From Phycisphaera mikurensis NBRC 102666 (GTDB lineage Bacteria > Planctomycetota > Phycisphaerae > Phycisphaerales > Phycisphaeraceae): a stretch of 32,000 nucleotides of DNA. The position numbers were made by a program, and so were the translations under genes. Under the pieces are notes generated by a model. That model saw only the letters and a program-made list of their open reading frames with translations, made no database searches and was not told the DNA's origin. How positions within the stretch are numbered: the first letter of the stretch is position 1; the number at the start of each line of letters is the position of its first letter. Location of the stretch: contig NC_017080.1 in the NCBI RefSeq assembly GCF_000284115.1, positions 2,370,001 to 2,402,000 on the forward strand. The letters run 5' to 3'. Below are positions 913-30,276 of the stretch, in pieces.

Positions 913-1418
913 GGTGGCTCACCGCCTCCGGCGGTGTAGGTCGGGCGGAGCCCGAGCCGGTGGCTCACCGCCTCCGGCGGTATAGGTCGGGCGAAGCCCG
1001 AGCGGGTGGCTCACCGCCTCCGGCGGTGTAGGTCGGGCGGAGCCCGAGCCGGTGGCTCACCGCCTCCGGCGGTGTAGGTCGGGCGGAGCCCGAGCCGGTG
1101 GCTCACCGCCTCCGGCGGTGTAGGTCGGGCGAAGCCCGAGCGGGTGGCTCACCGCCTCCGGCGGTGTAGGTCGGGCGAAGCCCGAGCCGGTGGCTCACCG
1201 CCTCCGGCGGTGTAGGTCGGGCGAAGCCCGAGCGGGTGGCTCACCGCCTCCGGCGGTGTAGGTCGGGCGAAGCCCGAGCCGGTGGCTCACCGCCTCCGGC
1301 GGTGTAGGTCGGGCGAAGCCCGAGCGGGTGGCTCACCGCCTCCGGCGGTGTAGGTCGGGCGAAGCCCGAGCCGGTGGCTCACCGCCTCCGGCGGTGTAGG
1401 TCGGGCGGAGCCCGAGCG
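913..1418. repeat. Tandem array of 11 copies of a 46-bp unit (REP-like, non-coding)
   Basis: The unit is GGTGGCTCACCGCCTCCGGCGGTGTAGGTCGGGCG[G/A]AGCCCGAGC[C/G]. Copies start at 913, 959, 1005, 1051, 1097, 1143, 1189, 1235, 1281, 1327 and 1373, an exact 46-nt spacing. Each unit holds two short hairpins (CACCGCC-TCC-GGCGGTG and TCGGGC-GRA-GCCCGA) separated by GTAG. The period is not a multiple of 3. TAG on the plus strand and TGA on the minus strand in each unit place stops in all frames about every 138 nt. Confidence 0.95.
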
Positions 1419-2184
1419 GATCTTGGAGACGCCGACGCATCCGCTGCGCGGACCCCGCACCGCCGGGGGCGGTGAGCCACCTGCGGACCCGCGGGCCAAC
1501 CGTCGGCAGCCTTCTCCTCGTCGGTCCCCAGCCCCGCGCCGAGCGCGAGATTCGGCAGCCGACGCCATCTGCCGGCCGGAGGCCGAGCCGGTGGCTCACC
1601 GCCTCCGGCGGTGTAGGTCGGGCGGAGCCCGAGCGGGTCTTGGAGACGCCGACGCGTCCGCTGCGCGGACCCTACACCGCCGGGGGCGGTGAGCCACCTG
1701 CGGGCCCGCGCCCCAACGGTCGGCAGCCTTTTCCTCGTCGGTCCCCGGCTTCGCGCCGAGCGCAAGATTCGGCAGCCCACGCCATCTGCCGGCCGAGGCC
1801 CGAGCCGGTGGCTCACCGCCTCCGGCGGTGTAGGTCGGGCGGAGCCCGAGCGGGTGGCTCACCGCCTCCGGCGGTGTAGGTCGGGCGGAGCCCGAGCGGG
1901 TCTTGGAGACGCCGACGCGTCCGCTGCGCGGACCCCACACCGCCGGGGGCGGTGAGCCACCGGCGGGCCCGCGCCCCAACCGTCGGCAGCCTTCTCCTCG
2001 TCGGTCCCCGGCTTCGTGCCGAGCGCAAGATTCGGCAGCCCACGCCATCTGCCGGCCGAGGCCCGAGCCGGTGGCTCACCGCCTCCGGCGGTGTAGGTCG
2101 GGCGGAGCCCGAGCGGATCTTGGAGACGCCGACGCGTCCGCTGCGCGGACCCCACACCGCCGGGGGCGGTGAGCCACCTGCGGT
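1373..2184. repeat. Higher-order ~217-bp composite repeat (46-bp unit + spacer + inverted partial copy + ~105-bp tail), 3 full and 1 truncated copies
   Basis: Composite units start at 1373, 1590, 1853 and 2070 (217-nt spacing), with an extra lone 46-bp unit at 1807. Each contains TACACCGCCGGGGGCGGTGAGCCACC, the reverse complement of the unit's 5' end with 1 mismatch. This gives a ~26-bp stem around a ~55-nt loop. The last copy stops just after the inverted arm. Confidence 0.9.
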
Positions 2185-2280: not shown

Positions 2281-3015
2281 TTAGACGGCGTCGCGGGCGT
2301 TGCGGAAGTAGCGGAGGCCGGCGGGATCCTGCTTGCCGCTGGTCCAGGCGGGGTGGTGCAGCGGGTCGGTCCAGCGCTCGGGGTGGGGCATGAGGCCGAA
2401 GACGCGGCCGGTGGGGTCGCAGATCCCCGCGATGCCGCGGTCGCTGCCGCTGGGGCTCTCGCCGGCGTAGCGGAGCGCGACCTGGTGGTTCTCCTCGAGC
2501 GCGTCGAGCACGGCGGCGGGCGCGGTGAACCGTCCTTCCGCGTGAGCACTGGGCAGCTCGTGCTCCCCGAGGCCGCGGGTCCACACGCACGGTGATTCCT
2601 CGTCGGCGGCGACGTGGTGCCACGCGTCGTGGAAGATCCCGCTGCGGTTGCGGGCGAGCGTGGTGATCTGCACCGCCGCGACCGGGTCGGGCAGCAGGCC
2701 GAGCTTGACGAGCACCTGGAAGCCGTTGCACACGCCGAGCACCAGCATCCCGCGCTCGATGTTCTCCTGAAGCGCGGGCAGCAGGTCCTGCCGGAGCCGG
2801 GCCGCGAGGATCCGCCCCGCGGCGATGTCGTCGCCGTGGCTGAAGCCCCCGGGCAGGCCCAGCGCGGCGAAGCCGGCGAGCCGGCCGGGCTCGCCGGCGA
2901 GCGCATTCACGTGGACGGTCTCGGGCGTGAAACCGGCCAGCGAGAAGGCGTGCGCCATCTCGGCGTCGCAGTTCGTGCCGGCCGTGCGGAGGATCAGGAC
3001 GCTGGGAGAAGCCAT
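2281..3015 (-). CDS. purQ: Phosphoribosylformylglycinamidine synthase subunit I (glutamine amidotransferase PurQ)
   Basis: The N-terminus VLILRTAGTNCD, the nucleophile elbow GVCNGFQ and the C-terminal MPHPER are typical of FGAM synthase I. The ATG at 3015 (MASPSVLIL) is preferred over the ORF-track start at 3054, which adds 13 aa. Confidence 0.9.
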   Translation of the reverse strand: MASPSVLILRTAGTNCDAEMAHAFSLAGFTPETVHVNALAGEPGRLAGFAALGLPGGFSHGDDIAAGRILAARLRQDLLPALQENIERGMLVLGVCNGFQVLVKLGLLPDPVAAVQITTLARNRSGIFHDAWHHVAADEESPCVWTRGLGEHELPSAHAEGRFTAPAAVLDALEENHQVALRYAGESPSGSDRGIAGICDPTGRVFGLMPHPERWTDPLHHPAWTSGKQDPAGLRYFRNARDAV

Positions 3016-4247: not shown

Positions 4248-4321
4248 TGGGCCTGGGTGGACTCGAACCACCAACCGTCGGTTCCGAAGACCGGTGCTCT
4301 ATCCAATTGAGCTACAGACCC
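4248..4321 (-). tRNA. tRNA-Arg (anticodon TCG)
   Basis: Hand-folded cloverleaf: acceptor GGGTCTG/CAGGCCC (one G-U pair), D arm GCTC-AATTGGATA-GAGC, anticodon loop CTTCGGA (anticodon TCG), T arm GGTGG-TTCGAGT-CCACC, discriminator A. No CCA is encoded. Confidence 0.9.
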
Positions 4322-4454
4322 GCGAGGGAGCCGGAGCATACCGGCCTGCCGGAACGCCGGTACACGCCGCGGCCGCCCGGCTCGGGCCGGTCGCGGGTGG
4401 GCGCCGCGCCGCATCGCGTCTCGGCCTGACCGCTCCCTAGATCCGGCCGCGGCC

Positions 4455-6347
4455 TCACCGGATGACGATCGCCGCCGGGTGCAACAGCAGCACGGGCTCG
4501 GTCCGGAGCTGCATCGCCGCGTCCAGCCAGCCGGCCGCGGCCGTCCAGGCGGCGGGGCCGAGCAGCCGCCGGGCGGCCGCCGCCGCCGCGGGCAGCGTCG
4601 CCTTCTTCGCGGCGACCGCCGACACCTGCGCGCCGCCGAACATCGCCGAGATCGCCTCGGGGAACGGCAGCGGCTCGGGCAGGTGCTCCACCTCGTAGCC
4701 GGCACCCAGACCCGCGGCCGAAGCCGCCGCGGCGATGGCCTGCGGCAGCCCGCCGACGGCGTCGATCATGCCCTTCTCCAGCGCCTGCTCGCCGGTGAAC
4801 AGCCGCCCCGCGTCGACCTCGGCCAGCTCGCCCAGCCGCTCGCCGCGGCCTCCGGCGACGCGCTCCTTGAAGAGGTCGTAGATCTTCACCATGGAGGCCC
4901 GCACCCGCTCCCGCTGGGCGTCGGTGAAGGGCTGCGTGGAGTCCAGGTAGCCGGTGTTGGGGCCGCGCGAGCGGCGGTGGATGCCGACGCCGAGCTTCTC
5001 GTACAGCCCGCCGAGCGACATCTTCCCGCCGACGACGCCGATGGAGCCGACGATCGCGGTGGGCTCGGCGTAGATCGTGTCGCCCGCGACGGCGAGGTAG
5101 TAGCCGCCGGAGGCGGCCATCGATCCGATCGACACGAGGACCGGCTTCACGGCCGCGAGGTCCTCCAGCGCCTGGAACATCATCTCCGAGGCGTGGGCCG
5201 AGCCGCCGGGCGAATCGAGCCGGAGCACCACCGCTTTGACGCGTTCGTCGGCGGCCAGCTCCGCCGCCTGCTCGACCACCGAGTCCTGCCCGATCGACGC
5301 CGAGGAGAACAGCCCGTCGTCGCTGCCCGACTCGCCGGCGCCGATGGGCCCGTTGAGGTGGAGCACCGCGACGCCGTCCCGCTTCATCCCCCGGGCGGGC
5401 GGGTTCATCAGCTGCGCGAAGAGCGCGAAGGGGCTGGTGGGCATCGCCGAGCCGCCGGCGCGGCCGAGCTGCGTGTCCCAGGCGAAGTCTTCGCCGAACA
5501 GCGACGAGGTCTCCTCGGTGAGGCCCCGCTCGACGGCGGCATCGATCAGCCCCCGCTCCACCAGGCCGGCGTCGTCGAGCAGCCAAGCGTCCGCCATCGC
5601 GGCCTCGGCCTCGGCCCGGTCCATCCCGCGGCCCGCCGCGATGCCGCCGAGCAATCCGCCGTAGAGCCCGTCGAGCAGGCCCTCGATGTTCTCGCTCCAC
5701 GCCTCCGAAGGGCCGGTCCGCGTGAAGGTCTCCTCGGCGCCCTTGAAGCGGCCGACCTGCATCAGGTCGGCCTCCACGCCGACCTTCTCGAGCATCCCGG
5801 CGAGGTACATCTCCTCCACCGCGATGCCCTGCAGCTCCAGCGACCCGTTGCGCTGCAGCAGCAGGCGGTCGGCGACGCTGGCGAGGTAGTAGCCCGTGGT
5901 GTCGTAGGCGGCCGCGAAGACCACCACCGGCTTGCCGGCCGTCTTCAGCCGCTCCAGGCCCCGACGCAGGGCGCCGGCCTGCGAGAGGGAGAGCTCCGGC
6001 CCCTTGAGGTGGACGACCAGGCCGGCGTGGTCGTCGCTGGTCTCGACCCGCTCGATCTGCGCGAGCACGTCCGAGAGCGACGGCGGCAGGTCGGCGGGAT
6101 CCAGGAAACTGAAGGGCGCGGGCCCTTGCCGCAGCGAGCCCTCGATCTCCAGCCAGCCCACTTGGCTCGCCTCCCGGCCCGCCGCCGCGGGCGCCACCGA
6201 TTCTTCCGCCGGCTCCACGGGCAACGCCTCGACGGCCTGCTCGGCGGCGTCGGCCACGTCGTCGGTGGTGACGGGGGCGACGGCGGCGGACGCGGGACAG
6301 GCGGCGGCCAGCGCGAGAGCGGCCGGCAAGAGGCGGAGCATGGGCAT
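4455..6347 (-). CDS. sppA: Signal peptide peptidase SppA, 67K (two-domain S49) type
   Basis: The protein starts at MPMLRLLPAALALAAACPASA (signal/anchor). It has two ClpP/crotonase-like S49 repeats, and the catalytic-serine context SIGSMAASGGYYLA lies in the second. The upstream 1038 codons of the 1668-aa track ORF are antisense to the next gene. Confidence 0.88.
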   Translation of the reverse strand: MPMLRLLPAALALAAACPASAAVAPVTTDDVADAAEQAVEALPVEPAEESVAPAAAGREASQVGWLEIEGSLRQGPAPFSFLDPADLPPSLSDVLAQIERVETSDDHAGLVVHLKGPELSLSQAGALRRGLERLKTAGKPVVVFAAAYDTTGYYLASVADRLLLQRNGSLELQGIAVEEMYLAGMLEKVGVEADLMQVGRFKGAEETFTRTGPSEAWSENIEGLLDGLYGGLLGGIAAGRGMDRAEAEAAMADAWLLDDAGLVERGLIDAAVERGLTEETSSLFGEDFAWDTQLGRAGGSAMPTSPFALFAQLMNPPARGMKRDGVAVLHLNGPIGAGESGSDDGLFSSASIGQDSVVEQAAELAADERVKAVVLRLDSPGGSAHASEMMFQALEDLAAVKPVLVSIGSMAASGGYYLAVAGDTIYAEPTAIVGSIGVVGGKMSLGGLYEKLGVGIHRRSRGPNTGYLDSTQPFTDAQRERVRASMVKIYDLFKERVAGGRGERLGELAEVDAGRLFTGEQALEKGMIDAVGGLPQAIAAAASAAGLGAGYEVEHLPEPLPFPEAISAMFGGAQVSAVAAKKATLPAAAAAARRLLGPAAWTAAAGWLDAAMQLRTEPVLLLHPAAIVIR

Positions 6348-6431: not shown

Positions 6432-9400
6432 ATGAGCATCGCCCCCTCGCCTGCGCGGGTTCCCGCGGCCTCGCCCGTGCTGACCGACACCGACGAGGCG
6501 GATGCCTTCGTCGGCGAGCTCTCCCGCCGCTGCCGCGGCGAGGTGCTCACCGGCCGGACGCTCCGCGGGATCTACGCCACGGACGCGTCGCTGTACCAGC
6601 AGTTCCCGCGGGCGGTGCTGGTGCCCCGCGACGAAGCGGACGTGGCGGCGGCGGTCCGCGTCTGCGCTGCGCACCGGGTGCCGATCACGCCGCGGGGCGG
6701 CGCGACCAGCCTCTCGGGGCAGACCTTCGGGCCCGGGCTGGTGCTCGACTTCTCGAAGCACATGGACCAGGTGATCTCGGTCGATGCCGAGGCGGGCACC
6801 GCGGTGGTGCAGCCCGGCGTCGTCCGCGACCGGCTCAACGCGCAGGTGGCCGAGCACGGCCTGCACCTCTCGCCCGATCCGGCGACCGGCAGCCGGGCGA
6901 CGGTGGGCGGGATGATCGGCAACAACACCTGCGGCACGCGCAGCGTCGTGTACGGCAAGACGATCGACAGCGTGATCTCGCTGCGCTGCGTGCTCGCCGA
7001 CGGGACGGTCGCCGACTTCACCCCCTGCGACGACCAGACGTGGCAGGCGCGGGCACGCGGCGAGGGCGTGAGCGAGACCGAGGCCCGCCTCTACCGCGGC
7101 GTCCGCGACCTCGTGCTGAAGCACCAGGACGCGATCCGCACCGGCTACCCCGAGGTGCTGCGTCGTGTCTCCGGCTACAACCTCGACGAGTTCGTCGACG
7201 GCGCCGGCTACACCGGCGACATCGGCCCCCGTCGCGAGCACAACCAGGGCCACCGGACCTGGAACCTGGCGAACCTCATGGTGGGCAGCGAGGGCACGCT
7301 GGGGCTGATCACCGAGGCGACCGTCCACCTGGAGAAGCTTCCCGAAGCGACCGCGCTGGTCATCGTGCACTTCGACTCGCTCGACGCGAGCCTCCGCCAC
7401 GTCGACGCGATGCTCGAGCACAAGCCCAGCACCGTCGAGCTGCTCGACGACATCGTGATCCGCGAGGCGAAGGTGAACCCGTCGACCAAGGCGATGTGCA
7501 ACTTCGTCGAGGGCGAACCGGCGGCCGTGCAGCTCGTCGAGTTCTTCGGCGACACGCCGGAGGAAGCCGCGGACCGCGCCGAGAACTTTGCCCGCGACAT
7601 GGCGGTCCGCGGGATCGGCTACGCGCACCCGATCCGCACCGATCCCAAGGGCATGGCCGACGTGTGGAACACGCGGAAGCTCGGGCTCGGGCTCATCTCC
7701 AACAACTACGGGCCGCTCAAGGGCAAGGACTTCATCGAGGACGCCTGCGTGCCCACGCGGCACCTCGCCGACTACATCCAGAAGATCCAGAAGCTCTGCC
7801 AAGAGAACGGCATCGACCGCCTCGCGCTCTACGCCCACGCCTCGGTGGGCGTCGTCCATGTGGTCCCCGCGCTGGACCTGCACCACGACGACCAGGTGGA
7901 GACGATGGAGCGTGTGGCCGAGCAGGCCTTCGCGTGGGTGATGGAGTACGGCGGCAGCTGGTCGGGCGAGCACGGCGACGGGCAGCTCCGCGGGCAGTTC
8001 CTGCCGAAGATGTTTGGCCCGGAGCTGTACGGAGCCTTCCGCGAGGTGAAGTCGCTGTTCGATCCGCACAACCTCATGAACCCCGGGAAGGTGGTGGACG
8101 CGGATCCGATGTCCGAGGGCCTGCGTTACCAGGTGCCGGGTTACAACAAGCGGATCGCGGAAGTCCGCACCCTGCACCACCACCGCTCGCAGGGCGGCTT
8201 CCAGCTGGCCGTCGAGCAGTGCAACGGGGTGGGGGCTTGCCGCAAGCTCGGCAGCGGCACGATGTGCCCCTCCTACATGGCGACGCGGAACGAGAAGGAC
8301 ACCACCCGCGGCCGGGCCAACGCCCTGCGGCTGGCGATGTCCGGGCAGCTCGGTCCCGACCCGATGGCGGCGCTCGCCGGCGACGGCGTGAAGGGCGTGT
8401 TGGACCTCTGCCTCTCGTGCAAGGCCTGCAAAACCGAGTGCCCCAACGCGGTGGACATGGGCAAGATGAAGGCGGACGTGATGCAGATCCGCCACGACCG
8501 CTACGGGGCGAGCCTGGGGTACAAGCTGCTCGGCCGCATGCCCGATGCGGCCGCCAGAATCGCCGGGCCGCTGGCGCCGCTGATCCAGCTGCCGCTGAAG
8601 ATCCCCGGCGTCCGCTTCGTGATGGAGAAGCTCACGGGCATCGACCGCCGGCGGCCGCTGCCGGCCTTCAGCTCCACCACGCTGGCGCGGGAACTCGGAG
8701 GCCGCCGCCCGCGGAGCGAGGTCGAAGCGCCGCGGGGCCCGGTGGTCCTCTTCGACGACACGTACGCCAGCTACATGGAGCCGGGGGTCGGCGTCGCGGC
8801 GGTGGAGCTGCTCGAGGCCGCCGGCTTCCGCGTGACGCTCGCCGACGCCGGCTGCTGCCAGCGCCCGCGGCTGTCCAAGGGCCTCGTCCGCGAAGCCAAG
8901 CAGTTGGGGACGCAGACCCTCCGCAACCTCGACGGCTTCGCCCGCGAGGGCCTCAAGATCGTGTGCCTGGAGCCCAGCTGCGCTTCGGCCCTGGTCGACG
9001 ACCTCCCCGACCTGTGCGACGACGGCGAGGAGGCGGAGATGGGCCGGCGGGTGGCGGAGCAGGTCCGCATGATCGACGTCTTCCTCGACGAGGAGGGCGT
9101 GGAGCTGGAGTCCTCCGTCGGCGACACGCTGCTGCACGGCCACTGCCACCAGAAGGCGATGTTCGGCACCGCCTCGACGAAGAGAGCGCTGGGCGCCGGC
9201 TGCACCGAGGTCGACAGCGGCTGCTGCGGCATGGCCGGTAGCTTCGGCTACGAACACATGAACGTGAGCGAGAAGATCGGCGAGGACCGGCTCTTCCCTG
9301 CCGTGCGGGGAGCCGCCGCGGCGGGCAAGACGATCGTGGCGCCGGGTCTCTCGTGCCGGCACCAGATACTCGACTTCCTCGGTGTCGAGGCGAAGCACTT

Positions 9401-12931: not shown

Positions 12932-13004
12932 GGGCCTGTAGCTCAGTTGGGAGAGCGCTGCCTTTGCAAGGCAGATGTCGTCGGTTCGAGCCCGTCCAGG
13001 TCCA
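12932..13004 (+). tRNA. tRNA-Ala (anticodon TGC)
   Basis: GGGCCTGTAGCTCAGTTGGGAGAGCGCTGCCTTTGCAAGGCAG...GGTTCGAGCCCGTCCAGGTCCA. It has the G3:U70 alanine identity pair, anticodon loop TTTGCAA and T loop TTCGAGC. No CCA is encoded. Confidence 0.93.
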
Positions 13005-22544: not shown

Positions 22545-25500
22545 ATGAACCCCTCCTTCACCCCCACCGCATCCCGCACGCCGCGAGCCCGGACCGCCGG
22601 CCGCCGCGGCTCCGCCCTGCTGCTCGCCGTCATCATCGTCGTCCTCATGACGATGATGGGCGCCGCGTACCTCCAGGTCGCCCGCACCGACCGGCGCACC
22701 AGCGTCGACGTCGACACCCGGGCCGACGTCGACAACAGCTCGATCCTCCGCTACATCGCCCTCGAGCTCGCGGGCGACGTGCCCGTGGAGGTCGGCGCGA
22801 CCGAGCCCGAGCCTTACGACTTCCCGTGGACGCGCAGCGTCGCGCCGGCCTCCCTGCCCGCGAACGACCGCTGGGTGGTGCTGGATCGCTTCGCGCCGAC
22901 CACGGTGCCGGGCCCGCAGCCGGACTTCAACTCCGAGAACAACAACCAGCCGGCGCGCCCGCCGCGGGCGGACGGGAACCTGAACGACGCCGCGGGCAAC
23001 CTCTACGCCGTGTCCGGCCCCGGCGACGACACCTGGCTCGCATCCACCGAGCCGGTGTTCACCGGCCCCAACGCCGGCAGCTGGCCGCACCTCACGAACC
23101 TGATGGGGATCTACCTGGACCTCCAGCCGGGTTCGCTCATCACCGACGCCGACGGCAACATCTACCCGCGGCAGTACCTGTCCACCGCCGACGACCTTAA
23201 CAACAGCGGCGACACCGGGGTCGACCTTGGTTTCATGCAGACTGACCTGCTCGCCGCGACGGGCGTCAACAAGGGTTCCCGCTTCGCCGACGCCGACGGC
23301 GACGGCATCGCCGACAGCCGCTGGACGTGGGCGCCGCTGCCCTCCGACGGCGGGCTGGCGTACGTCATGGCCGTCCGCATCGTCGACAACTCGGCGCTGG
23401 TGAACCTCAACGCCTGGACTTCCCCGGGGCTGCCGAACACCGACGACGGCGCCCGCTGGAACTGGCCGGGCGAGCTGAGCCTGGAGCTGTCGACCGACGC
23501 GCTGATCGCCCGCGCCGGCGGCGGCGCCGGGCCGCACGGCTTCGACGGCCAGGTGCTCACCGACGGCACCGCGCGCGACATGGCCGGCAGCAACCGCGAG
23601 CAGCGCTACGAGAACTGGCTCACCACCACGAGCACCCGCGGCGGCAACCCCGGGAACCTCGGCGATTACGAGACCATCGGGCCCTACCTCGAGCGGGAGG
23701 CGACGCCGGCGGTGGCGGGCGGACCGGAGAACCTTGGCCCGATCACCGGCGACGACGAGAGCCTCCCCGTGCGTGTGGAGGAGGTCGAGCTCCGCTGGAA
23801 GAACGGCCTGGACCGCAGCGACGACGGGATCGTGCCCAACGCGGGCACCCCGCTGGAGGACCTGCGGACGGCGCTCTTCCGCGCCGGCAAGCCGGCCGCG
23901 GAAGCCGACTACGCCGACTCGGGGTACACCTCGCTGCAGGCCTTCTTCGAGAACGAGCCCCGCAAGCAGATGACCGTGGTCAGCGGCTCGAGCAACGCCG
24001 CCCGCCGCAACCTGAACACCGCCGACCTCGGCGAGATCGCCAGCGCGTTCACCGGCCCGCTGTCGTACGGCGGCGGCACGCCCCGCAAGCCCGCGCTCTT
24101 CGACGCCGCCGGCTGGGAAGACTACTTCGCCAGCGGCGACGCCAACGCCGACTTCAACGACGCGGCGGAGGCCTTCGGCAACCAGTTCGCGGCGCTGGTC
24201 GAGGACTTCAAGGACGACGACAGCCACTTTACGCTCGTCAACAACGCCTACGGCATGGAGCGGGTCCCGGTGATCTCCGAGGTCTGGTCGCAGGCCCGCT
24301 ACCAGGCCACCGACGTCACCGCCGACCCCGGCCCGCCCGCCGAGGACCTCGTCGACTGGACCTACCAGGACCACGCCGTCGTCATCGAGCTGGTGAACCC
24401 CTGGCCGGTGCCGACCGTGGTGACCGGCGTCGAGCTGGTGGTCGGCGACGAGAGCTGGGGCGAACTCGACGCGCTGCTGGCCAAGGACGTGATGGACGGG
24501 CACGAGATCGCGGTGATCCGCCGCCCCGACGCCCTCGCTGGTGCCGCCGGGCCCGCGCAAGCGCCGATCACCGCCGCCGGCGTCGACTCCGACCACGCCA
24601 AAACGCCCGCCCCCGACGACTTCCGGATCTCGCCGGCGGGCCCGCTGGAGGCCTTCGACATCACCCTCGTCGCGGAGGACAACGACGGCAACGAGGTGCC
24701 TTACCAGCGGCTCGCCGTCCTGAGCTTCCCCGAGGAGGTGCTCGACGAGCGCTTCGCCACCGGCGGCGTCACCCTCGGCGAGACCCGCTACCGCTTCGCC
24801 CGGCGCGTCGGCACCGCCAACGGCCTCAACGCGCTCGCGGCCCGCAGCGTGGACTTCAGCACCGAGGTCCCGACGCCGGTTCCCACGGGCACCGTCCCGC
24901 CGACGAACACCGTCTTCGTGCCCGCCGGCAACGCACCCGGCGACCAGTTCGGGACCGCGTCCAAGAGCGTGACCTCGGGCGCCACGGACGTCTCCGGCCC
25001 CCTCGCCGACCTCGACAACCGCGTCGCGGACGTGCCCGACCTCGACACCGCCGCGGCGCCGGGCCAGGAGCCCTGGACGATCGGCGACGTGGGCCGGCTG
25101 ACGCGGACCGGCGACATCCTCCGCCTCGTCTTCGTCGGCCCCCGGCCGACGACCGGCGACGTGGAGCCCATCGCGGAGGCCTGGATCCGCTCGCGGCTCG
25201 CGGCGGGGAGCTCCTCCACCGCGCTCCAGCTGGCCGACCGCATGATCGACCTCGCCGGCACCGAGTTCGTCGCGGCGGGCGCCGACGCGCCCGACAGCAT
25301 CAACTTCGCCGCGTCCTGGCTGCAGCGCTTCACCACCGACGTGCCCGCGAGGACGTCCCTGGTCCCCGGGCGGATCAACCTCAACACCGCCCCCGAGCGG
25401 GTGATCGCCTCGGCCCTGCCGATGCCCGGCGCGGCCGAGCGGGACGCCATCGCCGCCCGCGTCGTCGCGGCCCGGGAGAACCCCTCGGTGCTCGGCGCCA

Positions 25501-25919
25501 CGACCAACCGCAGCGGCCGCATCGGCCTCTCCGCGACCGGCGAGCTCGCCGGCGACGCCGGCGTCTTCCTGAACGCCACGACGAACAACGCCCAGCTCGC
25601 GGACTTCAACGAGGCGGAGCTCGAACCGCTCGCCGGCGCGTGGCAGAACGCCGGCCTCGACCGGGGCGACCCCGCGGACGACGGCTACCTGCAGGACCGC
25701 GAGGAGCGGGACCGCCTGATGAACTACCTCAACCAGGTGGCCTCGACGCGGTCGGACATCTTCACGGCCTACGTGCTGGTGCGTGCCTACCCGGTGGCGG
25801 ACTTCTCGGCGGCCCCCGTCGACGAGTACCGCCTCCTGGCGGTCTTCGATCGCTCGACCGTCAGCGGCAGCAACCCGCTGGCCCGCCTGCTGGGCGTGGT
25901 AAAGCTCGACGACGACTGA
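22545..25919 (+). CDS. Giant GspK/PilX-like pseudopilus tip protein (1124 aa)
   Basis: The N-terminus RRGSALLLAVIIVVLMTMMGAAYLQVARTD is a GspK/PilX-type helix without Glu+5. It has a DADGDGIADSRW loop and two (N/I)LNTA helix-hairpin-helix-like motifs (RRNLNTADLGEIA, GRINLNTAPERVIASALPMPG), as in the GspK family. The opposite-strand 1248-aa ORF is a Gly/Arg/Val-rich shadow. Confidence 0.75.
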   Translation: MNPSFTPTASRTPRARTAGRRGSALLLAVIIVVLMTMMGAAYLQVARTDRRTSVDVDTRADVDNSSILRYIALELAGDVPVEVGATEPEPYDFPWTRSVAPASLPANDRWVVLDRFAPTTVPGPQPDFNSENNNQPARPPRADGNLNDAAGNLYAVSGPGDDTWLASTEPVFTGPNAGSWPHLTNLMGIYLDLQPGSLITDADGNIYPRQYLSTADDLNNSGDTGVDLGFMQTDLLAATGVNKGSRFADADGDGIADSRWTWAPLPSDGGLAYVMAVRIVDNSALVNLNAWTSPGLPNTDDGARWNWPGELSLELSTDALIARAGGGAGPHGFDGQVLTDGTARDMAGSNREQRYENWLTTTSTRGGNPGNLGDYETIGPYLEREATPAVAGGPENLGPITGDDESLPVRVEEVELRWKNGLDRSDDGIVPNAGTPLEDLRTALFRAGKPAAEADYADSGYTSLQAFFENEPRKQMTVVSGSSNAARRNLNTADLGEIASAFTGPLSYGGGTPRKPALFDAAGWEDYFASGDANADFNDAAEAFGNQFAALVEDFKDDDSHFTLVNNAYGMERVPVISEVWSQARYQATDVTADPGPPAEDLVDWTYQDHAVVIELVNPWPVPTVVTGVELVVGDESWGELDALLAKDVMDGHEIAVIRRPDALAGAAGPAQAPITAAGVDSDHAKTPAPDDFRISPAGPLEAFDITLVAEDNDGNEVPYQRLAVLSFPEEVLDERFATGGVTLGETRYRFARRVGTANGLNALAARSVDFSTEVPTPVPTGTVPPTNTVFVPAGNAPGDQFGTASKSVTSGATDVSGPLADLDNRVADVPDLDTAAAPGQEPWTIGDVGRLTRTGDILRLVFVGPRPTTGDVEPIAEAWIRSRLAAGSSSTALQLADRMIDLAGTEFVAAGADAPDSINFAASWLQRFTTDVPARTSLVPGRINLNTAPERVIASALPMPGAAERDAIAARVVAARENPSVLGATTNRSGRIGLSATGELAGDAGVFLNATTNNAQLADFNEAELEPLAGAWQNAGLDRGDPADDGYLQDREERDRLMNYLNQVASTRSDIFTAYVLVRAYPVADFSAAPVDEYRLLAVFDRSTVSGSNPLARLLGVVKLDDD

Positions 25920-29697: not shown

Positions 29698-30037
29698 CTT
29701 CAACAGTTTCCTGGGGAGCGGGCCCCGGCGGGATCCACGAGCGCGGAACAGGACGGCCTCCGGCGACCCGCTGGCCGCCGGAGACGCCGTTGTCTCCGCA
29801 GAGCCCCGCGCACGCGGCGGGGCACCGAATCGGGATGGACTTCAAGACCGGCGGCGGCGTTGCCGCGGATCGGCCGTGCGAAGTGCAAACCATGTGCCGG
29901 CGTATCGGCCGGCAACGGCCGCTCCGCGGGCGGCCGGTGCCTCCGCCGCGGGCATCGAGCCGCCGGATGCCGCCGCCGTGCGCAAGGGGCAAGCGGCTCT
30001 CCTGCGCATGGCCCATCGGTCGGCCAAGAACATCTCC

Positions 30038-30276
30038 GGGTGCCACGCCGCTTGCGGGGTGGCGAGGGCGGGAGGTCGCCGCGACGCGGCCACCCCGCAA
30101 GCGGCGTGGCACCCGGGCATCGGGGGGTGGCGAGGGCGGGAGGTCGCCGTGACGCGGCCACCCCGCAAGCGGCGTGGCACCCGGGCATCGGGGGGTGGCG
30201 AGGGCGGGAGGTCGTCGCGACGCGGCCACCCCGCAAGCGGCGTGGCACCCGGGCATCGGGGGGTCTTGGAAGACCC
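30038..30276. repeat. 3 x 68-bp tandem repeat preceded by one inverted arm (26-bp perfect inverted repeat) in the nasS-porin intergenic leader
   Basis: Units start at 30058, 30126 and 30194 (68-nt spacing) and differ by single bases in the loop segment. GGGTGCCACGCCGCTTGCGGGGTGGC (30038-30063) is the exact reverse complement of 30089-30114. The array ends with the hairpin GGGTCTTGGAAGACCC. Confidence 0.9.

Follow-up and report, generated by a model that had tools for sequence, protein, structure and literature searches.

A 46-bp sequence repeated eleven times head to tail, without spacers, lies near the left end of a 32,000-nt stretch of the Phycisphaera mikurensis NBRC 102666 genome (the window) and raises the question of what such an array is and how it arose. 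An earlier note had described it as a distinct element reminiscent of the REPs recognized by RAYT transposases. Here, we place the array in its surrounding sequence, compare the same site in related genomes, assess the hairpins formed by its units and weigh the explanations for its origin.

The array within a nested repeat block

Tandem Repeats Finder reported a period of 46, 11.0 copies, 96% matches, 0 indels and a score of 953 at 910-1417. A 43-nt unit pattern allowing up to three mismatches matched 15 times in the window, always on the + strand (shuffles expect 0), and 11 of these matches were contiguous at 913-1415. Both searches bore out the eleven spacerless copies, which we place at 910-1415. 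The variant table contained exactly the three variable positions stated before: C or G at unit position 3, a single G>A at position 27, giving GTATAG in unit 2, and G or A at position 39, in a triloop. In units 5-10, the combinations (C,A) and (G,A) alternate three times, so that the 92-bp dimer register from which expansion by dimers had been proposed is visible. Stops were found in all six frames (longest open stretch, 138 nt), in agreement with the view that the array cannot encode protein. Head-to-tail non-coding repeats of 10-100 bp are classed as VNTRs or minisatellites, and the array is such a repeat. Since repeat-finder, pattern and variant results agree, the earlier description of the array was accurate; it stopped too early, however, and missed the rest of the block, including the remaining four matches to the unit pattern, which start at 1590, 1807, 1853 and 2070.

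Seen in full, the repeat is nested and spans 1.28 kb (910-2181), of which the array makes up just the left part. Each module starts with a forward arm (F), which a 27-nt spacer separates from an imperfectly matching inverted arm (I; 42 nt, complementary to F at about 83%); a 102-nt linker follows. The module occurs four times, with 92-97% matches and a period of 217 bp that lengthens to 263 bp with a doubled F; modules 1 to 4 carry 11, one, two and one copies of F, a total of 15 F and four I arms, and module 4 stops after I4, without a linker. The array is thus not a free-standing element, as had been thought, but the amplified arm of a palindrome inside this block. The features of the locus are:

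9-761, + strand: 3′ part of an ABC2-membrane/CPBP (Rce1-like) fusion gene, stop codon 759-761, converging on the repeat (Pfam; gene call in draft contig L001)
910-1415, + strand: forward arm F, eleven head-to-tail copies of 46 bp, GCSGGTGGCTCACCGCCTCCGGCGGTRTAGGTCGGGCGRAGCCCGA (Tandem Repeats Finder, pattern search, variant table, DNA fold)
1416-1442, + strand: 27-nt spacer, apical part of palindrome 1
1443-1484, + strand: inverted arm I1, imperfectly reverse-complementary to F (about 83%) (repeat search, nhmmer)
1485-1586, + strand: linker 1, 102 nt, repeated together with the palindrome; no significant fold, as judged on the linker 2 stretch
1587-1701, + strand: palindrome 2, consisting of F (1587-1632), spacer and I2 (1660-1701) (repeat search, fold)
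1702-1803, + strand: linker 2
1804-1964, + strand: palindrome 3, consisting of two F (1804-1895), spacer and I3 (1923-1964) (Tandem Repeats Finder, repeat and pattern searches)
1965-2066, + strand: linker 3
2067-2181, + strand: palindrome 4, consisting of F (2067-2112), spacer and I4 (2140-2181); end of the repeat block (repeat and pattern searches)
2281-3015, − strand: purQ (GATase_5), stop at 2281, converging on the repeat from the other side (Pfam)

Divergence among the four modules was 1.1% for F, 4.3% for the spacer, 3.6% for I and 9.2% for the linker, the palindromic parts diverging less than the linkers (Fisher p 0.01-0.05). Between modules 1 and 2, for example, there were 4 differences in 115 positions of the palindrome versus 13 in 102 of the linker (p = 0.02), and F alone had none in 46 (p = 0.01). 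The lower divergence of the palindromes is compatible with constraint or with gene conversion among the repeats, and the homogeneity of the F arms could reflect selection or an enzyme-driven process instead of neutral concerted evolution.

The block fills the gap of 1519 bp (762-2280) between the convergent stop codons of the ABC2-CPBP gene and purQ, which matches the gene-free gap of about 1.5 kb given previously. No ORF in the gap had the GC3 signature of the genes in this window (71.6% G+C), and three repeat ORFs had no Pfam match. No Rfam family matched the repeat at the gathering threshold, and only sub-threshold, miRNA-like hairpin noise appeared at E<=10. No sigma-70-like promoter was detected, and a simple scan of 600-2500 revealed no intrinsic-terminator pattern. 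The other genes of the window are housekeeping genes (oxidoreductase, S49 peptidase, pdxJ, glycerate kinase, a type II secretion/pilus cluster, moaC and nasS/nasT-like genes), with no transposase or cas gene among them. The only Rfam matches in the window at the gathering threshold are two tRNA genes, at 4248-4321 (−) and 12932-13004 (+). In addition, a 1124-aa ORF (22545-25919, +) without a Pfam match directly follows four pseudopilin (N_methyl) genes and the T2SS E/F genes. A general role of such repeats as convergent-gene terminators was ruled out: the 17 inverted repeats in 2200-32000 all lie away from convergent junctions, and the pdxJ/glycerate kinase junction, the one other examined, is too short (15 bp by ORF coordinates).

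The array was compared with a draft assembly, GCA_014207395.1 (contig L001), which apparently represents the same strain and carries PurQ. Its flanks are 100% identical to the window. It reproduces array units 1-8 with the same variants, followed by a gap of 99 N in place of 91 bases of the window (1275-1365) and by the last unit. It is one 263-bp module shorter (window 1633-1895), with the junction inside identical sequence. A Logan short-read contig breaks inside I4, and the Logan contigs of SRR12223476 stop at both repeat loci of the window. That the array is an over-expanded or mis-joined repeat, a possibility raised earlier and one towards which the gap, the missing module and the broken contigs might point, is barely credible, because units 1-8 and the last unit were independently reproduced in the same variant order between identical flanks, the gap estimate nearly matches, and the variants are arranged unlike what collapse or duplication of a consensus would produce. 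We conclude that the array is real. The length difference between the assemblies is not distinguishable from short-read collapse, and array length may be regarded as roughly corroborated.

The same spacer in relatives and a second palindrome

Relatives were contigs of PurQ homologues (84-93% identity) with the convergent purQ/ABC2-CPBP pair; where named, these homologues were assigned to Phycisphaera, Phycisphaeraceae or Planctomycetota. The spacer between the two genes contained:

L081: empty; spacer length roughly 55-60 bp, read directly from the sequence
L073: one palindrome, arms CGGCACAC-TCC-GTGTGCCG
L079, L080: the palindrome type of L073 and another palindrome
L074: a palindrome homologous to that of the window and a second type, arms CCCCGTAGG-GTGCGTC-TG-GACGCAC-CATG
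L075: the second type of L074 in three 264-bp tandem units, 6746-7537
L076-L078 (Logan SRR268316xx): contigs that stop 46-105 bp beyond purQ, within a short palindrome that has a related hairpin, CACCACC-TTCA-GGTGGTG

The L074 homologue, from a metagenomic genome, is single-copy, and its relationship to the palindrome of the window is clear (alignment score 46, compared with 21.7 +/- 2.9 in shuffles; nhmmer E = 6e-11). Compensatory changes preserve its stems around a GCGNAGC core that does not vary, but GTAG is not preserved. The 264-bp unit of L075 consists of a 152-nt nested palindrome, with arms of the form CCGTAGG-hairpin-CATG, and a duplicate of the 3′ end of the CPBP gene; these repeats are called as 81-aa ORFs by gene finders. 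A similar derivation of the window's linker from adjacent gene ends was considered and rejected, as alignment scores were only 17-18 and shuffles of the left flank average about 20. The L076-L078 contigs are three independent contigs with a PurQ identity of 86%, and they end in CCGGTKCCACCACC-TTCA-GGTGGTGAGT...; since all three end inside the palindrome, the element may be repeated or variable in that genome as well. Of the features of a MITE, inverted arms are present; no target-site duplication was recognizable against the (diverged) empty site of L081, and no cognate IS was seen.

Given the contents of the same spacer across relatives, the ancestral state is a single palindrome or none. The 1.28-kb block is a lineage-specific expansion, and the purQ/ABC2-CPBP spacer is a hotspot for the gain and loss of palindromic elements.

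A second palindromic element was detected near the right end of the window. Hereafter, the palindrome of the array is referred to as type C and the second one as type E:

30036-30275, no strand assigned: type E, left arm CCGGGTGCCACGCCGCTTGCGGGGTGGC, then loop and right arm as a 68-bp unit in three head-to-tail copies (Tandem Repeats Finder, repeat search)

The tripled arm of type E is identical in the window and the draft assembly, and one Logan contig ends within the element. L073 has homologous arms (4373-4574; z = 11.7) at a different, non-orthologous locus. In the window, the element lies in a nitrate-assimilation cluster, between a nasS-like NMT1_2 gene/ANTAR response regulator and a porin gene, a position suggesting that it could be part of an ANTAR-regulated leader. 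Types C and E have no detectable relationship (z = -0.8); a shared GGTCTTGGA(A)GAC motif was dismissed as a single weak coincidence. Because the type-E arm is tripled too, arm amplification looks like a recurrent event in the palindromes of this genome, which leaves room for an enzyme-driven process.

Palindromic elements are frequent in the relatives' loci, with four to five per 12 kb and several families common to different contigs, compared with about one per 10 kb in the P. mikurensis genome. Two further palindromes of this genome, about 6-7 kb past the right end of the window (L082, 3811-3946 and 4827-4954), have arms made of runs of the octamer AGCGAAGA and are located between nitrate ABC-transporter genes. 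Similar elements in relatives have arms of 7-8-nt direct repeats (GGTCTAG, CGCAGATG, CACGGAGG), and the draft contig contains (AGAGACGA)x5.4 at L001 16366-16408. The octamer-armed elements look like a separate, undescribed family of inverted-repeat elements.

Hairpin structure of the arms

Palindrome 2 (F, spacer and I; 1587-1701) folds into one 115-nt hairpin with three small apical hairpins (dG -96.7 kcal/mol, z -8.5), and the opposite strand folds similarly. Thus, F and I, two inverted repeats separated by 27 nt, form a single long hairpin, as expected of a REPIN. The stretch around linker 2 (1700-1810) had no significant fold (z -0.3 and -0.45 on the two strands).

For a single unit, the centroid structure calculated with DNA parameters contains the two triloop hairpins that had been seen next to GTAG, CACCGCC-TCC-GGCGGTG and TCGGGC-GRA-GCCCGA, 4 nt apart, and the G of GTAG doubles as part of the stem of hairpin 1. 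The minimum-free-energy DNA fold retains the second hairpin and draws the first one differently. As DNA, the unit is unusually stable (z -3.5; none of 200 shuffles was equally stable), and with RNA parameters it is unexceptional (z -1.5 on the + strand, -2.4 on the − strand). Stems of 7 bp (CACCGCC-TCC-GGCGGTG) and 6 bp (TCGGGC-GRA-GCCCGA) correspond to the short palindrome expected of a REP (stem of 6-9 bp within 20-40 nt). The distribution of GTAG is different from that of a REP tag, which should be unpaired and present in more than 90% of members: GTAG was found in 14 of 15 F arms, one of four I arms and neither arm of the L074 homologue, which has GCAG and GTGG instead. It is therefore not the conserved tag of the element that it had appeared to be from the array.

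Conservation of the hairpins was assessed in an alignment (A2) of three arm lineages, F, I and L074. All 78 cells of both hairpins pair across these arms, with both-sided changes in 5 of 13 pairs. The covariation score was 0.436, compared with 0.144 +/- 0.044 in shuffles, and collapsed when partners were slid. In quasi-palindromes, template-switch correction can generate compensatory changes without selection. As this process can mimic compensation, the covariation is no proof of function.

The core G-C and C-G pairs and the GNA loop, together GCGNAGC, are invariant across F, I and L074 arms. GCGNAGC is known as the "mini-hairpin DNA" motif, which is of extraordinary stability, and d(GNA) loops are stable when a C-G pair closes them (PMC13037366, PMC3201870). 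Together with the difference between DNA and RNA z-scores, this motif points to a structure formed in single-stranded DNA and not in RNA.

Origin of the array and competing explanations

The array is a known kind of bacterial "junk" or structural repeat cluster and not a new system, namely a lineage-specific, VNTR-type amplification of one arm. There is direct support for the anatomy of the block, its homology to a single-copy element in a relative, the conservation of the hairpins, the lineage-specific expansion and the second arm-amplified locus. With regard to its origin, the array is probably a locally amplified arm of a REPIN/BIME-like or MITE-like extragenic palindrome, expanded by slippage or unequal recombination. 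A single ancestral palindrome would have occupied the short intergenic stretch where purQ and the ABC2-CPBP gene converge with their 3′ ends. The 217-bp unit of palindrome and linker would have been tandemly duplicated to four copies, and the F arm would then have been amplified head to tail, to 11 copies in unit 1 and two in unit 3, with the last rounds occurring in 92-bp dimer steps. Slippage is classically promoted by hairpins of high stability on the template or the nascent strand. We infer that amplification most likely proceeded by replication slippage or unequal recombination, favored by the stable ssDNA hairpins of each unit. The finding that type E is also arm-amplified supports local expansion. 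No function is implied for the array beyond REP-like hairpin roles at transcript 3′ ends; candidate roles would be a barrier to read-through or exonucleases, or a topological (supercoil) buffer between the convergent genes.

Several described repeats share parts of this organization. It has been reported that the REPINs of Pseudomonas fluorescens SBW25 consist of two inverted, hairpin-bearing repeats that form a long hairpin of about 100 nt (Bertels & Rainey 2011, PMC3116915), and in that genome REPs also stand in direct tandem arrays, of up to 12 members, and REPIN clusters are repeated in tandem together with flanking DNA (PMC3116915), so the earlier claim that REPs form no direct arrays was wrong. 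Tandem REP/REPIN clusters including flanking DNA also have a precedent in PMC3733652. In the direct arrays of SBW25, however, REPs are 72-112 bp apart, whereas the 46-bp arms described here abut without spacers. The GTAG REP super-family (Di Nocera et al. 2013, PMC3733652) has GTAG beside a GC-rich stem-loop, with reported stems of 6-9 bp compared with 6-7 bp here, and its inverted dimers are 20-100 bp apart, as is the inverted pair of the window. In most GTAG REP families, head-to-tail dimers are absent or rare (PMC3733652), unlike the 11 head-to-tail arms of the array, and spacerless, arm-only arrays of 11 are not typical of described REP clusters. The block as a whole, [F-spacer-I-linker] x4, has the alternating-orientation repeats and conserved linkers in tandem that characterize BIME-2. 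Mycobacterial MIRUs are likewise intergenic, head-to-tail repeats of a GC-rich genome, with units of about 40-100 bp, subject to slippage or recombination, with difficulties in assembly and likely copy-number instability; they differ in occupying many loci and in not being palindrome arms, whereas the unit here is half of an inverted-repeat element. CRISPR arrays also have direct repeats, of about 46 bp and with internal dyad symmetry, and were ruled out, as the units abut without spacers, there is no leader and no cas genes are present in the 32-kb window.

An alternative to slippage or unequal recombination is that the palindrome belongs to a REP/REPIN family maintained by a RAYT-type (HUH Y1) transposase and that the array results from cleavage and rejoining by the enzyme at ssDNA hairpins. 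GTAG followed by a triloop hairpin with a 6-bp stem in 14 of 15 F arms, the REPIN-like hairpin of the inverted pair, the density of palindromes in relatives and the amplification of arms at two loci would all fit this explanation. So would the inverted CCGTAGG-hairpin-CATG pairs of relatives at the same site, with L079 having the same frame and a different stem. GTAG REPs and RAYTs have been reported in Planctomycetes (PMC3733652), and a model in which RAYT processing gives rise to complex REP arrays is cited in that paper. In view of the inverted partner 27 nt away and the relatives' GTAG-hairpin inverted pairs at the same site, the resemblance to REPs noted earlier is a reasonable lead.

Other properties of REPs, by contrast, are lacking. 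GTAG is missing in three of four I arms and in both L074 arms. Hundreds of dispersed copies and RAYT genes, as in SBW25, were not found in the sequence searched: no further type-C arm was detected outside 910-2181 in the 32-kb window, nor in the adjacent 8 kb and 9.5 kb (17.5 kb), and type C was seen only at the window locus and the orthologous L074 site. Exact 35-nt and 28-nt cores had no matches in one-genome-per-species GTDB contigs, where diverged copies would escape, and the 28-nt core had none in JGI metagenome contigs. Cores of types C and E had no matches in viral contigs, and blastn against plasmids found none. The 20-nt half containing GTAG and its hairpin had 70 metagenome matches, all of them single chance matches and mostly to one conserved coding gene, and in none of the 70 was the rest of the unit present. 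A spurious 150-aa ORF of the repeat, taken as a stand-in for copies at other places, was compared with 1.84 billion protein representatives and yielded one unrelated low-complexity match. Finally, gene calls and scans covering about 50 kb of the genome revealed no Y1_Tnp (PF01797), RAYT or other transposase. Architecturally, the element resembles a REPIN cluster; conservation of the GTAG tag, dispersed copies and a RAYT were not found where they were searched for. With GTAG missing in most I arms and in L074, and with no further copies or Y1 transposase in about 50 kb, membership in the REP/RAYT family is not established, and we consider maintenance by such an enzyme unlikely.

A bolder and rather improbable explanation is that Phycisphaera-type planctomycetes possess an undescribed palindrome system whose arms are defined by GCGNAGC instead of GTAG and are concatenated by a single-strand-specific enzyme, which might be a divergent HUH/RAYT-like protein or another nuclease. 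Such a system would explain the arm-only amplification of two unrelated palindromes in one 32-kb window and the greater uniformity of F arms relative to linkers; the arrays might then be selected, for instance as topological or transcriptional barriers.

The array might instead work as RNA, with 3′-UTR hairpins terminating or stabilizing the CPBP or purQ mRNA, or as the precursor of a unit-length small RNA. Its position directly downstream of two convergent genes and the conservation of the hairpins with compensatory changes would be consistent with such a role, and REPs stabilize upstream mRNA according to the introductions of PMC3733652 and PMC3116915. We give this explanation little credence: no Rfam match and no promoter- or intrinsic-terminator-like site was found, a single unit is far less exceptional as RNA (z -1.5) than as DNA (z -3.5), the invariant GCGNAGC is a DNA-specific stability motif (PMC13037366), and relatives manage without any such array.

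BIME-2 arrays of alternating REPs bind gyrase. By analogy (a topological-insulator reference is cited in PMC3733652), the strict 46-bp phasing, the near-identical units and the location between convergent genes, where positive supercoils accumulate, might indicate a putative double-stranded protein-binding array, with gyrase or nucleoid-protein sites or centromere-like iterons, but this is very doubtful, as no ParB/ParR-like or other partner gene is nearby and the array is absent from the same site in close relatives.

Together, these observations document several REPIN/MITE-like palindrome families in genomes of the Phycisphaera clade, with fast turnover at orthologous intergenic sites. Such palindromes can grow into kilobase-sized nested tandem repeats that break short-read assemblies. 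The practical value is modest, although the locus would be a good VNTR marker and is a natural test case for the expansion of hairpin units. Should an associated enzyme be found, REP/RAYT-type biology would reach into a deep-branching class of planctomycetes, in which the recognition motif differs.
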